From Cycas panzhihuaensis (Eukaryota > Plantae > Cycadophyta), in contig CM041465.1 in assembly GCA_023213395.1 (NCBI GenBank), positions 245,961,741-246,025,740 of the forward strand: DNA of 64,000 nt, given 5' to 3'. The first letter of the stretch is position 1. The number at the start of each line of letters is the position of its first letter. Made by a program: the position numbers and the translations under genes. Below the pieces are notes generated by a model. That model saw only the letters and a program-made list of their open reading frames with translations, was not told the DNA's origin and did not search any database. This document shows, one piece after another, positions 1,826 through 37,031 of the stretch.

Positions 1826-3710
1826 ACTTTTACACCAGTCTTAAAGATGACTATAGTCAAATCGATCCCTTCAGTTGTAGCTAAATTTGAATGAGAGATA
1901 TATCATATAGATGTAAAGTCTGCATTCCTTAATGGTGAACTAAAGGAGGAGATTTATATGGTACAACCTCCTAGTTTTATTGAGGAAGGATGTGAACAAT
2001 TTATATACCATTAAAAAAAATCTTTATATGGTCTAAATCAAATACCTCAAGTATGGTTTACAAAGATTGATGCAACCTTAAAGGATAAAGGATTTATTAT
2101 GATATATTTTGAGCCAAATTTATATATCAAGAAGATTAGTTTATCTATTGTGATGATTATTCTATATGTCAATGATTTGATCATTATAGGGAGTTATCAT
2201 GAGGAGATTATGGTGATGAAAGCATACCTATAGGAGAATTTTGATATGATAGATATGGGGCTCATTCATTACATTTTAGGCATTGAGATTAGATAACTAA
2301 AAGATAAGATATTGATGTCATAGAGGACATATGCTAAATTATTGCTTGAGAAGTTCAGGATAAAGGATTATAAACCTGCAAGAACATTGGTTGTTAAAGG
2401 CATAAAACTTTTGAAGGATATAAAAAAGCCTATAGTTTGTAGAACACTATATAGAAGTGTTATAAGGAGTCTAATTTATTTAATTTATACTAGGCCTGCC
2501 ATTTCTTATGTTGTTGGATTGGTCTCTTAATATATGTGGAATCCTCAAGAGCCATATTGGGCTATAGTCAAAAGGATTTTGAGATATTTGAAAGGTTCTC
2601 TAAATCTTGGTTTAGAGTATTTGAGAGATGGTGATCTATGATTACAAGGATATACAAATATTGATTGGGGTAGTGACACTAATGATAGAAAATCTACCGT
2701 ATGATACATGTTTGGTATTAGTGGTGGATCAATATCATGGTAATAAAAAAATAATAGACTATTGCATTATCTTCTACTGAGACAAAGTGCTAAGGACTCT
2801 TAGTGGATGCTTATAAAGTAGTTTGGTTGAAAGGAATGCTAGAAGTTCTTGACATTCAAAGTAGCATAACAACTATCTTTGTGGATAATCAAAGTACCAT
2901 TCAACTATTAAACAATACTAAGTTTTATACTAGAACCAAATATATTAAGATACAACATGACTATATTAAGGAGATGGTTATAGTAGGGAAGTTGATTATG
3001 GAATATTATCCAAATAAAGAATAACTAGTAGATATTTTTATAAAGTCACTTACTAAAGATTATTTTACAAGGATCTACATCAAATTGGGACTATGCAATC
3101 TTTCCCTTAAGGGGGGATAAATCTGCAAGGCCAACAGTCACTTGTCTTGAAGGTTATATATGACACAATTATTTTCTATAATTGCATATTGAGTCCTTAA
3201 CCTGTATTTACATTAAGATGAGATGTTATTGACTATGGTTAATATTAATACATAATAAAGTTAATGCTTCATTCAGCAATAAGTGGTAGAAACTAAGAAT
3301 GATATACAAAGAGTTACAAGTATCGATATTTGAAGGGACATAGAGGATTGAGATATGAAGGGGCATGAGTATCAAAGTTCGAAGGGACATAACCATTTAA
3401 AAGAGTCTTAAACCTTTTTGAAGAGTCACAACTCTTCATGTTTGTACCCTTTGGATTATTTATAATGGATCTAAGATAGGATAGAATAGAAGTGAGAAGG
3501 AAATAATGTAATCATTGGTGTATCTAATCAATCATTATCAATTACTTTGTGTGTGGGTTTTTCTCCTAAAAGAGTTTTCCATACTAAAACTTGTGTATTC
3601 TATGTTTATTCTTTTATTTAATTTCCATGTATGCTATGCAAAACTAGCAAAGATCTGACATGAATTCTGCATGGCATTAGGGCAAGCCTAATCATGCCTA
3701 AATTCTCACA
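1826..3710 (+). mobile_element. Ty1/Copia 3' half: RT-RNase H pseudogene 1826-~3105 and 3' LTR ~3224-3710
   Basis: Translates to [40 protein letters not shown] (YVDD motif), YRSVIRSLIYLIYTRPAISYVVG and VDNQSTI..TRTKYIKIQHDYIKE, with many stops. A degraded PPT (cattaagatgaga) precedes TGTTATTG; the LTR ends AATTCTCACA. Confidence 0.85.
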
Positions 3711-6700
3711 ATATATAACTAGATTTTGGTCATCTAAATTATACTTTAATTATCGAAAAATATCATTATTAGTTTGTGTTGAGGTTGATGTAGGTTTCCA
3801 AGAATTCTTGTTATCTATGTTACTTATCTTGTTGGTGATTCAATTGCTTTGTATTCAACTTCTAGTCTAGATAAAGAAACTATTGGTTATTTCTTTATGT
3901 TCTAGGATATTAATATAGAACCAATATTGAATACATATCTAAAAATTAATTTTTTAATCTTTAATATCACCTACCTATACTACAATTCATAATTTAGTGT
4001 TCCTTTGATATATCTCAAGATTCTTTTTATTATTTCCTAATGCTCTTCTTTTGGTTTTGACATGAATCTTAAAGTTATATGGACTATATATGCTACATTT
4101 GATCGATTATTCCTCAAGTAAATCAAGTTTCTTATCAATTAATAATGCAAAGTAGAATCAACTAAAATGGAATTTTTATTTTTAATTAAAATTCACTTAA
4201 GTTTAATAAGAATAAAACTTGAATTACATTCACTCATGTTGAATTTTTAAAATATGTATATAGCATATTTATTTATGATATATGGATGCCAGTCTTACTT
4301 TGCTAAAATTTCATGCTAAGAAAATAATGTAATTATCTTAGATCTATCATTTTAAAATTTTAATTCATATCATTTTTAAATTACTAGAATATTTTATCAC
4401 TATTTCTTGTATAAATAAGATCATCAACATAAAAGGTTGTTTGTAGGATTGAAGTATCTGTAGTTTTAATGTACAATTTTAGATTTGATGTACAATTTTA
4501 TATTTGATAGACTTTTCTAAAATCCTTTATTTTAAAAGCATTTATTAATTTTGGAGTACCAACTTCTTGTGGCTTATTTTAGTCTATATAAAGCTTTATT
4601 TAACTTGCATACTATGTGTCCATGTTTTTCAATCTTAAATCCTTAAAGTTGAGCAACATAAATTTCTTTATCAATATATCTATTAAAAAAATATTAATTT
4701 AACATCTATTTGATGTATAGTTTGTCCTTGATAAGTAACTAAAGATAAGATACTTCTGATTATATCTATTTTGGCAACTACAACAAAGGTATCTTCATAG
4801 TCAATTCCTTCTTGTTGAGCATAAACTTTTGCTATGAGTCTTACCTTATATTTGTCAACTTCACCATTAGGTTTATATTTGGTTTTCTATACCTACTTTA
4901 TATTAATCATTTCTTTACCAATAGGCAACTTTAGTAAATTCCATGTTTCATTTCTATAAAAAGAATCATATTTCACTTCCATTGTTTCAATCCAATTTTC
5001 ATTATCAATAGCTTCTTCAAAAGATGGAGGTTCATGAATTTGTATTATTTGAGTCATCAATGCAAAGTTAACTCTCGCTTAAGACCTAATTAACCTTTTA
5101 TTAAAGTTTCTATTAAGCATTACCTCTGGATTATGACTTCTAATGAGCTAGTTTAGTCCTATAACTTAGAGTTGAGCTTAAATTTTGAGTTGAATTTAAA
5201 GTTGGGATTAATGAAGATGAAGTCTGAAGTGGTTTTGAATCAACTTCAATGATGACCTATTTTCCTTTATTTTCTTTAACTTTAAAAACTATACTTTTAT
5301 CAAAAGCCATATCTTTGCTTATAAAGAATTTCTTTATAATTAGATCAAACAGTCTATAGGCCTTTTGTTCACTTGAATAGATTATGAAAATACACTCAAC
5401 ATTTTTTCTTTCCAACTTGGTTCTTTTTTCATTAAGAATATGATCATAAGTAACACATCCAAAGATTTTTAAGTGAGAAGCATCTAGCTTGTAACTAGTC
5501 TAATGCTCTTCAAGAATTAAATTCTCAATTGCTTTCGTAGGATTTTTTTTTAAACAGATAAACAACAATACTCTCTACTTTAGCCCAATATTTATTACTT
5601 AGTTCTTTTGACATAAACATATATTTTCCCATTTCTATAACTATTTTAATTTTCCTTTCAATCCCTCTATTTTGTTGAGATGTGTATAGAGTAGTGAATT
5701 GTCTTCTTGTGTTAACTTTGTTATATAAATCTCTAAAATCATTTAAGTTGAATTCACTACCATTATTTGAATAAAGAACATGCAACTTATAACCACTTTA
5801 TCTTTCAACCATGATTCTGAATTTAACAAATCTTTAAAATGTTTTAGATTTTTCTTTAAGGAAATATACTCAATTTTTTCTTATAAAATCGTCTACAAGA
5901 ATTAAGAAAAAATTGGTATTTCTAAATGTTAGTATTCTTATTGGGCCACATAAATCTACATATATCAATTGAAATGGATATCTAGATTAAACTTATGAGT
6001 TTGGAAAGCTTTCCCTATGTTATTTTTCATAGATGCATCCTTCATATACTCCATTATTATCTTGAATGAATTGATAATAAGTGCATCATAATTGATATGT
6101 CTAAATCGATGATGTCAAAGTATGTTTTCATTTGAAAGTAAAGTATTCAAGACTTGGAGAAAGTACAAGTTTGAATAATCTATCCTTTGTCATTTGGCCT
6201 TTAGTAACTATCATTCTATTATTCAACTTATCATTGATTTTACATTCTCTATTATAAAAAGCTATCTTATATTATTGTTTCATCATTTATCCAATAGATA
6301 ATAGGTTCTTTTTCAATCCAGATATAAATAAGACATTTTGAATGGTTTCACTTTCTTTACATTCAATTTGAATTATTACAATTCCTTGTCCTTGAACTTC
6401 TCAAGTATTTTCATTTCTAAAAAATTACTTTTCTTTGATTGCTTTCTTCTTGAAGTTTAGAAAACATATTTGTATTATAAGATATATATGTTGAATAACT
6501 AGATTCAATATACCATTCATCTTTCCTATTAAAAGATTGAACATTCAAACTTATATATAAAATATTTTCATTTCTATATATTGTTGTATTGGCCATATCA
6601 TATTTATGACATGCATATGAAAAATATCCTTATATTCTAGATTTGTAGTAGTTTGGGATGAATCCTCTTCCTCTTCCATTTCTTCTAGATTATGTTCTTC

Positions 6701-36900: not shown

Positions 36901-37031
36901 ATCTCATAATATCATTTATGATCCTAGTATTATTTTATTTTCTTTATTATTTATTCACTTAATTCACTCATTTACTATTATGCCAATTATATTTCTATCA
37001 TGGTATAATAGTGAATTCATAAATTCTAATA
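33963..37031 (+). mobile_element. Complete non-autonomous Copia-derived mini-element: LTRs 33963-34293 and 36720-37031, PBS 34294-34305, PPT 36711-36719
   Basis: Direct repeats of 310-330 bp. TSD ATTTA/GTTTG (two G>A differences); removing the element restores the host RT frame. Confidence 0.9.
35735..36712 (+). pseudogene. Single-frame decayed ORF (326 codons read): Copia Gag N-terminus, acidic linker and RNase H C-terminal half
   Basis: Reads NL*DVV..KDIKALSYIFSTLDGNIFSHVYHATTSKET*DILKS, then a D/E-rich tract, then LMKNLTLQIKMKHIDIKHHRYIQELI..EEQIPNII..KY*KFKE. There is no frameshift, only stops. Confidence 0.8.

Follow-up and report, generated by a model that had tools for sequence, protein, structure and literature searches.

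The end of an LTR is usually regarded as set by one PBS. Dual-PBS retroviral vectors with dual initiation exist as laboratory constructs that use different tRNAs. LTR swapping in soybean, reportedly described by Du et al. 2010, places an unrelated or diverged LTR on another element's internal region. In plant elements of Ty1/copia and Ty3/gypsy type primed by tRNA-Met, the PBS directly follows an LTR that ends in CA (PMC6317226, PMC7197481, accessible text). More than one tRNA-binding site is reported in the accessible part of PMC1635307 for the bipartite PBS of Ty3 and Drosophila Gypsy and for the multipartite PBS of Ty1, where the second site binds a different portion of the tRNA and, in Ty3 and Gypsy, is located near the 3' end of the RNA. 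According to the available portion of PMC1084362, multiple-PBS revertants of HIV-1 are laboratory variants with different tRNAs that carry several PBS, arisen in replication, at the 5' end of the RNA. Tandem-array TRIMs and Cassandra multi-LTR elements gain several PBS by repeating units made up of an entire LTR and an internal part that includes a polypurine tract (PMC4079214, PMC13570524, available sections), and the copies of one mosquito family show two PBS types, distinct from stacked units (PMC3212995, in part).

Here, we analysed a 64-kb stretch of the Cycas panzhihuaensis genome (the window). Two of its elements, (a) and (b), carry a module of LTR end plus PBS that is duplicated at the border of U5 and leader and is present in both LTRs. 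The layout shares the 12-nt PBS motif, the 5-bp TSD and the polypurine tract with the canonical plant junction as given in the accessible text of PMC6317226 and PMC7197481. In contrast to that junction, there is more than one LTR-end/PBS module, and only the outermost is not located inside both LTRs. Unlike in the HIV-1 revertants and the dual-PBS vectors, these are naturally occurring copies for a single tRNA; they contain the integrase end, and high-copy families pass them on in both LTRs. Unlike in Ty3 and Gypsy, the same tRNA 3' end is matched twice, 31-39 nt apart and at the 5' end of the RNA; with both sites matching the same 12-nt motif in or next to U5, a bipartite PBS of the Ty3/Gypsy type is ruled out. 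TRIM arrays and Cassandra differ in the size of the repeat, as only 21-52 nt around the PBS are repeated here, and a tandem-array TRIM is likewise ruled out for a unit of 31-39 nt that has neither polypurine tract nor full LTR. Finally, in distinction to soybean LTR swapping, the junction is the repeated PBS itself, with a piece of the donor U5 end left in the new LTR (L044, L004, see below). In a literature search judged by titles and the first lines of abstracts, with few subscription papers covered, we found no plant description of the stacked layout, which does not establish absence from print. Repeated LTR-end/PBS units are not described in the accessible parts of PMC1084362, PMC3212995, PMC1635307, PMC4079214, PMC13570524, PMC6317226, PMC7197481, PMC2576258, PMC4580426 and PMC12853362.

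Anatomy of the repeated units in the window

Table 1. Features of elements (a), (b) and (c) in the window; PBS mismatches in (a) are counted against the 12-nt motif.
Feature	Positions	Strand	Remarks
(c) Copia RT/RNase H remnant and polypurine tract	1790..3130	+	5' part of (c) beyond window
(c) candidate 39-nt unit	3672..3710	+	PBS-like 12-mer (3 mismatches), inverted copy of the 12-mer, imperfect LTR-end copy
(a) copy 1	10945..14918	-	LTRs ~10947-11393 and ~14471-14918; decayed internal region
(a) copy 1, 3' LTR 34-nt unit (inner PBS, spacer, LTR-end copy)	10947..10980	-	inner PBS 3 mismatches
(a) copy 1, outer PBS	14459..14470	-	5 mismatches, all transitions
(a) copy 1, 5' LTR 34-nt unit	14471..14504	-	inner PBS 2 mismatches
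Host flank duplicated along with (a)	14918..17315; also ~23768-26325, 30363-32622	.	marks tandem triplication
(a) copy 2	17315..23768	-	interrupted by nested LTR element
(a) copy 2, 3' LTR 34-nt unit	17317..17350	-	inner PBS 17339-17350 perfect; then TSD
(a) copy 2, outer PBS	23309..23320	-	3 mismatches
(a) copy 2, 5' LTR 34-nt unit	23321..23354	-	inner PBS 1 mismatch; spacer-inner PBS pairing predicted
(a) copy 3	26325..30363	-	
(a) copy 3, 3' LTR 34-nt unit	26327..26360	-	inner PBS perfect (0 mismatches)
(a) copy 3, outer PBS	29904..29915	-	3 mismatches
(a) copy 3, 5' LTR 34-nt unit	29916..29949	-	inner PBS 2 mismatches
(b)	33963..37031	+	LTRs 33963-34293 and 36720-37031
(b) 5' LTR 31-nt unit	34263..34293	+	spacer and start of end copy form a 14-nt palindrome
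(b) outer PBS	34294..34305	+	3 mismatches
(b) 3' LTR 31-nt unit	37001..37031	+	TSD next, 3/5 match

Element (a) has a direct-orientation LTR pair with TG..CA-like ends, several of which show G>A or C>T changes, a PBS 3' of the 5' LTR as well as a polypurine tract ahead of the 3' LTR. The 34-nt extension that a preliminary description had assigned to all six of its LTRs is present in each of them on the minus strand. The TSD, TACTC-like on the minus and GAGTA on the plus strand, is found on both sides of the three copies at the outer CA, beyond the extension, while the inner CA is followed by a PBS and not by a TSD. As had also been claimed, a further PBS is found after all three 5' LTRs; its mismatches (5, 3 and 3) are exclusively G>A or C>T changes. 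The flanks of the three copies are 91.6-94.7% identical and the TSD is common to all, compared to 81.5-84.7% identity between 5' and 3' LTRs. Judged by this one TSD and the same flanks, the three copies are a single insertion that was triplicated in tandem afterwards, and the six LTRs therefore count as two independent ones and not as six separate pieces of evidence. A Pfam scan of the internal region in nine frames gave no match, and its Copia-like character was judged by eye.

Element (b) likewise consists of two direct LTRs with TG..CA-like ends, a PBS past the 5' LTR and, before the 3' LTR, a polypurine tract. Its 31-nt extension is seen in both LTRs and ends, as described before, at the TSD, which is equal at 3/5 positions (ATTTA/GTTTG). 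A copia-type gag remnant is weak (Retrotran_gag_2, E 0.0045, below the Pfam cut-off). The PBS of (a) and (b) is thus neither single nor restricted to the outside of the LTR, since a further one lies within both LTRs, and in neither element does the TSD map to the inner CA.

For (c), a Copia RT is detected upstream of the candidate unit (Pfam RVT_2, E 3.7e-42). The letters of the proposed 39-nt extension are present as claimed; with 3 mismatches and an imperfect end copy, they do not make (c) an established case. No second copy of (c) was found within the window, and its 5' LTR lies beyond it. The proposal of a second PBS built into the LTRs of three families thus holds for (a) and (b), with (c) as a candidate. 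The three LTR bodies resemble each other only at chance level, and tblastx among the internal regions gave no match.

A loose double-PBS motif, defined as CA, a PBS with at most 3 mismatches and an end copy no more than 2 edits away, was counted 9 times in the real 64-kb window and 0.24 times per shuffled window, with a maximum of 2 in 100 shuffles. At five further 5' junctions of the window, the PBS is single. The window also contains other local tandem duplications.

Relatives and similar arrays beyond the window

The spacer of (a) together with the outer end was found on more than 100 distinct contigs per run in the sequencing runs X1, X4 and X5, which carry three species labels. The extension is hence not confined to single copies. 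One variant, at 23328, is carried by 104, 110 and 100 contigs in X1, X4 and X5, respectively. Among the best-supported 18 of 391 rows, none has a loose end at the inner CA. Joints that skip the unit are seen in X1 and X4 (2 rows, one contig per row), and PBS-to-leader joints occur in X1, in both cases with an upstream side of insufficient length to prove single-PBS relatives.

In metagenomes, the exact double-PBS pattern was detected in 104 stretches that represent 103 loci, a count of exact matches and not a frequency among all elements. The 95 loci with sufficient upstream DNA fall into 31 LTR-side clusters. Arrays contain two PBS in 77 loci, three in 22 and four in 4, at periods of 21-52 nt. 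Of 24 loci scanned, 7 have Pfam domains of Copia or Ty3 type downstream. Viral contigs yielded 0 stretches with the pattern, and blastn found no relation between the window elements and the 103 loci. L006/L035, L057 and L093/L100 may be satellites and not LTR junctions.

Both LTRs are available for 11 insertions. We denote insertions by the PBS counts of the 5' end and of the 3' LTR: n/(n-1) has one PBS fewer in the 3' LTR, n/n has equal counts and n/0 has a short 3' LTR. Six insertions are n/(n-1), one is n/n and four are candidate n/0, with TSD checks covering four of the n/(n-1) cases and the n/n case. The first class comprises L036, L044 and L055, each with a perfect TSD at the outer end, L068 (TSD 4/5), L001 and L026; the n/n insertion also has a perfect TSD. 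The preliminary description had called for a search for progeny with a short 3' LTR, and the four n/0 insertions are candidates for these; they could also be assembly chimeras or post-insertion changes. For an alternative use of both PBS, with long and short strong-stop DNA, the n/(n-1) and n/0 insertions would be indirect signs at most, and they come from genomes other than that of (a) and (b). The unit of L011 contains only the CA of the LTR end and is missing from the L011 3' LTR. Within one family, 2 or 3 PBS are found at the 5' ends and 1 or 2 in the 3' LTRs.

Could the units be local duplications that arose in the DNA of the host chromosome after insertion, without reverse transcription? 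The other tandem duplications in the window agree with such an origin, and it could account for L011, L049 and similar insertions of the n/0 and n/n classes. However, it cannot place one unit in both LTRs with a TSD at the outer end, as found in (a), (b), L044, L055 and L036, nor can it yield the (a) unit on more than 100 contigs per run. It is largely refuted for (a) and (b), and as an overall account we find it hardly credible.

In two families, the unit appears to sit on an unrelated LTR. The L071/L038 LTR has a U5 end equal to the L044 unit (for the L071 unit, the figure is 93%), and the L044 LTR body has no blastn match to that LTR. Similarly, the units of L004 and L003 are 82% alike, and their LTRs do not match each other. 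Both cases may reflect assembly chimeras or changes after insertion. Because units occur on unrelated LTRs too, different spacers are not supported as a sign of independent origin only.

Probable origin of the units and possible use of the inner PBS

The module probably stems from a slip in reverse transcription and was probably copied into both LTRs by tRNA priming at the outer PBS, as a by-product of copying. We infer the priming and transfer steps from genomic fossils and short-read assemblies. Plus-strand strong-stop DNA, with the PBS copy at its end, would slip back or mis-anneal and then copy the U5 end once more, in some cases preceded by several bases of the leader. A new LTR end could form only from units whose last part reproduces the integrase end (..CA). 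Outer priming would then make the inner unit part of U5, resulting in an n/(n-1) element. With inner priming, the 3' LTR would be short but the array at the 5' end would stay, so that neither priming route would remove the array. Second-strand transfer out of register between PBS copies could further lead to gain or loss of units or link the array to an unrelated LTR. The previous suggestion that priming from the downstream PBS passed the upstream PBS into both LTRs is supported by the outer-CA position of the TSD in both (a) and (b), and by three metagenome n/(n-1) elements with perfect TSDs at the outer end.

The 3' end of the spacer matches the U5 end over at least 6 nt in 25 of 35 hand-picked types. 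The median match is 9 nt, compared to 1 nt in shuffles and about 2 nt forced by the search pattern alone. Copies of the U5 end are near-whole in L071, where the boundary shows microhomology to the PBS end, L053 and L080, and copies of the leader start are found in L012, L002, L011 and L030. With the last 8 nt excluded, the test for U5 likeness is passed by only 11 of 36 spacers. The (a) and (b) spacers show no significant similarity to U5 in this test (p 0.34-0.99) or to the leader (p 0.08-0.59), and an origin as copies of the leader start is not supported for them. The slippage origin of these two spacers would thus be extrapolated from other families.

Plain slippage also does not explain a predicted pairing between spacer and inner PBS in (a), with p ~0.02-0.04 in three LTRs and 0.006 in one; both LTRs of copy 1 are not significant. 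In some families, the spacer might have evolved to fold onto the inner PBS and hide it, so that outer priming is forced, the long LTR breeds true and the hairpin is the working part. A hairpin built from different letters is predicted in (c) as well (p 0.018), the change seen most often at 23338 among (a) relatives converts a G-U to a G-C pair, and one variant spacer in X4 and X5 apparently alters, by eye, both sides of one stem pair. Against this, changes at 23331 and 23335 in relatives disrupt the predicted stem, the pairing is absent in (b), the case comes from one independent family, and whole-region folding z-scores range from -1.5 to +0.4. Across 35 types, pairing is not stronger for the inner PBS than for the outer one (mean -3.0 and -2.9 kcal/mol, Wilcoxon p 0.96; 2/35 and 1/35 types significantly paired at p<=0.05), and a general PBS-masking hairpin is rejected. 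Even for some families, we consider such a function quite improbable.

Rather unlikely, in our assessment, is selection on the element for the extra PBS as a backup or booster priming site, which would speed up initiation or rescue a decayed outer PBS. In 26 PBS copies that the search pattern did not require, inner and outer ones together with a few matches by chance, 15% of sites deviate from the motif, while the within-family spacers of F2 and F3 are only 53-67% alike with the last 8 nt excluded. In (a), the outer PBS has 3 shared transitions and the inner PBS is perfect in two LTRs, and the short-3'-LTR forms suggest that the inner site is usable. However, use of the inner site would itself refresh the inner PBS from the tRNA, so that its conservation would need no selection. 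The detection limit of 4 mismatches biases the PBS copies towards conservation, and the single PBS at the five other 5' junctions counts against such selection.

The inner PBS had further been proposed to act as a decoy for 3' tRNA fragments, to which PBS-targeting small RNAs can be added, or as an additional tRNA site through which RNAs dimerise or are bridged. Inhibition of mammalian ERVs at the PBS by 3'-tRFs and targeting of plant-element PBS by miR845 (PMC7197481, accessible text) lend themselves to a decoy, and the multipartite tRNA sites of Ty1, Ty3 and Gypsy to a bridge, except that the second Gypsy site is complementary to a different tRNA region and is located close to the 3' end of the RNA (PMC1635307, accessible part). 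A second cis target on the same RNA should add silencing and not divert it, and in (a) the inner PBS has decayed since insertion no more slowly than the LTR body (7 changes in 72 sites and 99 in 2418), which leaves the decoy unsupported. The U5 of the 3' LTR is absent from genomic RNA. With the same tRNA 3' end matched twice, 31-39 nt apart, one tRNA could not bridge the two sites; together with the absence of the 3'-LTR U5, this makes a bridge of the Ty3/Gypsy kind unlikely. To these roles as a whole we give very little credence.

Implications for LTR retrotransposons

Under slippage and outer priming, the LTR end of double-PBS elements can shift outward stepwise, and the PBS counts in both LTRs would form a fossil record of the priming site and of the register of second-strand transfer, readable across plant genomes without experiments. 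Stacked PBS would also offer a concrete route for LTR swaps among unrelated families and, if PBS-carrying solo LTRs can prime, a route to new TRIM/LARD-like elements. They may mislead the annotation of LTR boundaries and PBS, assays of PBS-primed extrachromosomal cDNA, inter-PBS markers and the prediction of 3'-tRF or miR845 targets.

Beyond that, there is a tentative, rather doubtful possibility that stacked LTR-end/PBS modules are an overlooked, widespread trait of tRNA-Met-primed LTR retrotransposons and serve as a universal plug. As the PBS is common to every family, unrelated elements could swap LTRs at second-strand transfer, 3' or solo LTRs could prime flanking host DNA and seed non-autonomous elements, and in lineages like (a) a fold-back spacer would lock outer priming.

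Double-PBS junctions in the window

The window is AT-rich (GC 31.6%) and crowded with decayed LTR elements. A loose motif for the junction occurs nine times, compared with 0.24 in shuffles, and a single PBS is found at five other 5' junctions (1427, 9831, 19608, 38605 and 49829, the last identified by motif alone). The motif is the PBS described as standard for plants (PMC2576258) and as matching tRNA-Met or iMet (PMC6317226, PMC7197481). The preliminary description proposed three families with a PBS inside the LTR, and this holds for elements (a) and (b); sequence comparison of the LTR bodies of (a), (b) and (c) detected no relatedness to one another. 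All six LTR termini of (a) read LTR end, inner PBS, 12-nt spacer and repeated LTR end, and a decayed further PBS directly follows each 5' LTR. The TSD lies outside this extension, as had been claimed, adjoining the outer CA in (a) and matching at 3/5 positions at the outer end in (b). For (c), the described letters are present downstream of the Copia RT. Because its motif has 3 mismatches, the end copy is imperfect and the 5' LTR lies beyond the window, (c) remains a candidate.

The six LTRs of (a) cannot serve as separate evidence. The three copies share one TSD and their flanks are 91.6-94.7% identical, closer than the 5' and 3' LTRs (81.5-84.7%), so that (a) represents one old insertion, triplicated afterwards. 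It is a single case for counting.

Features of the window and of metagenome loci
Feature	Position	Strand	Observation
Element (a), copy	10945-14918	minus	
Element (a), copy	17315-23768	minus	
Element (a), copy	26325-30363	minus	
Tandem block	10791-32622		~6.5 kb, (a) plus flank, three copies; copy 2 later took nested LTR element, copy 3 lacks ~150 nt of flank
Element (b)	33963-37031	plus	31-nt unit in both LTRs, outer PBS
Palindrome in (b)	34275-34288	plus	spacer and start of end copy, 14 nt, perfect in 5' LTR, one change in 3' LTR; may be a dimer-initiation-like site or a chance product of AT-rich sequence
Nested element	19165-21488	plus	looks non-coding, without Pfam match; LTR pair 90.5% alike; one PBS (19608); target site A-rich
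Element interrupting Copia at 1791	1439-1791	minus	LTR 77% like that of nested element
PBS and T-loop-like stretch	38560-38616	minus	perfect PBS, followed within ~35 nt by a stretch that appears to resemble a tRNA T-loop in sense orientation
TA-rich microsatellites	8850-9300, 17390-17460		long; one expanded within 3' LTR of (a) copy 2
Head-to-tail duplication	42247-42575		166 nt, 87% identity
Locus L005	~4760-4775		3' LTR end and 5' unit ends differ by one base, five positions from end; same in L054 and L065; possibly subfamily difference, heteroduplex or assembly
Locus L030	2240-2700	plus	TRIM-sized, apparently tandem; three PBS after one LTR, none in next
Locus L057	138-3128	minus	997-aa open frame, no Pfam match, containing the double-PBS pattern within a short repeat; unlikely to be an LTR junction

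Occurrence beyond the window

The exact pattern (two PBS 8-41 nt apart, CA preceding the second) was found in 104 stretches of metagenome contigs, corresponding to 103 loci, and in none of the viral contigs; the pattern covers double-PBS arrangements only. Grouped by their LTR side, the 95 loci with sufficient upstream DNA fall into 31 clusters, and one cluster comprises 34 loci. Arrays hold two PBS in 77 loci, three in 22 and four in 4, with periods of 21-52 nt. Of 24 loci scanned against Pfam, 7 have retrotransposon domains downstream: copia-type gag (L066, L101, L026), integrase or Pol pieces that are presumably copia (L005, L014), Ty3-type gag (L046) and a weak aspartic protease (L015). 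Part of the 103 loci may be satellites.

Six sequencing runs, under three species labels, contain 22-40% of the (a) region's words. In contigs of four of these runs, summed depth reaches thousands on the LTRs versus tens on the flank, although contig depth is not copy number. In 240 nt surrounding the 5' junction, the spacer and outer end are each time covered by more than 100 contigs in a run (one variant at 23328 is carried by 104, 110 and 100 of them, by run), some being expected from other families sharing LTR end and PBS. The extension is thus a family trait and no single-copy accident, in line with the earlier proposal. Many of these contigs carry a canonical outer PBS, and contigs with loose ends show more PBS-like units both upstream and downstream. 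No loose end falls at the inner CA among the best 18 of 391 rows; single-PBS relatives are hinted at.

Composition and inheritance of the unit

Among 35 types picked by hand, 25 have a spacer whose terminus copies at least 6 nt of the U5 end (median 9 versus 1 by shuffle), and 6/35 have one that begins with at least 5 leader bases. When the last 8 nt are kept constant, the U5 match persists in 11/36 spacers, four types being left out for length. The units of L071, L053 and L080 copy nearly the whole U5 end, that of L071 with microhomology to the PBS end at its boundary. Among spacers with at least 80% identity, 4 match at least 3 of the last 5 PBS bases (background 6% of positions), a small sample (n=11). 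The spacers of (a) and (b) show no significant match to the leader or, beyond the last 8 nt, to U5.

Twenty-one loci have an LTR-like sequence in a second copy; excluding L057 (short tandem repeat), the other 20 represent 11 distinct insertions. Six of these carry one PBS fewer in the 3' LTR than at the 5' end (L001, L026, L036, L044, L055, L068), with perfect TSDs in L036, L044 and L055 and 4/5 in L068. The 3' LTR lacks the unit in four (L005, L054, L011, L030), as judged from the LTR copies, and the L049 group has two PBS at both ends and a perfect TSD. The L011 unit includes no more of the LTR end than CA, and its absence from the 3' LTR is expected if inheritance requires an integrase end in the unit. 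Five distinct 3' LTRs of the largest family carry 1, 1, 2, 2 and 2 units.

The strong-stop DNA of the minus strand is described as copying all sequence upstream of the priming PBS (PMC7197481), so outer priming would make the inner unit part of U5 and copy it into both LTRs. Priming at the inner site would leave the 3' LTR shorter, with the 5' array still restored from RNA. Unit number would change only by mis-registered PBS annealing at the second transfer, or by later deletion. Through these steps, all of which we infer, the array would rather probably preserve itself and drift, without need of any benefit.

Units also occur on unrelated LTRs. That of L044, from the largest family, equals the last 30 nt of U5 in the L071/L038 LTR, while the LTR bodies give no blastn match; L038 fuses an L071-type LTR to an L044-type leader start, and L004 and L003 have unrelated LTRs and units 82% alike. 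Matching LTR pairs and perfect TSDs in L044 and relatives indicate that the hybrid form transposed as such. The simplest reading is that units would have been moved by second-strand transfer at the shared PBS between co-packaged RNAs.

Possible functions and significance

A tRNA-bridged role, as had been suggested, is unlikely in the Ty3/Gypsy form: that bridge is described as requiring sites for different tRNA regions at both RNA ends (PMC1635307), which the elements examined here do not have. The suggested decoy role is hypothetical, and since plant PBSs are reported miR845 targets (PMC7197481), an extra copy could equally be a cost. Protection of the inner PBS of (a) after insertion is contradicted by changes at 7/72 sites versus 99/2418 in the LTR body, and the host therefore does not conserve it. 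Between 5' and 3' LTRs, raw counts of differences are 2/44 columns in the module versus 51/403 in the body. Across loci, unselected PBS copies differ at 15% of sites, and two families have spacers 53-67% alike. This speaks for conservation of the PBS, but biased detection and renewal from the tRNA can account for it. A fold-back of the (a) spacer onto the inner PBS is predicted, significantly in 4/6 LTRs of one insertion, and likewise one for (c) from that element's letters; a tendency of this kind is not seen across the 35 types (p 0.96).

LTR swapping, as reported, is among the nearest precedents. Others are multiple-PBS revertants of HIV-1 (PMC1084362), bipartite PBSs (PMC1635307) and tandem TRIMs (PMC4079214, PMC13570524); as far as these sources describe them, none has the stacked LTR-end/PBS layout. 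We found no published description of it in plants, most subscription journals lying outside the search. We conclude that the stacked-unit layout is a real and widespread variant of the known U5-PBS junction, and most probably a by-product that has side effects on evolution.
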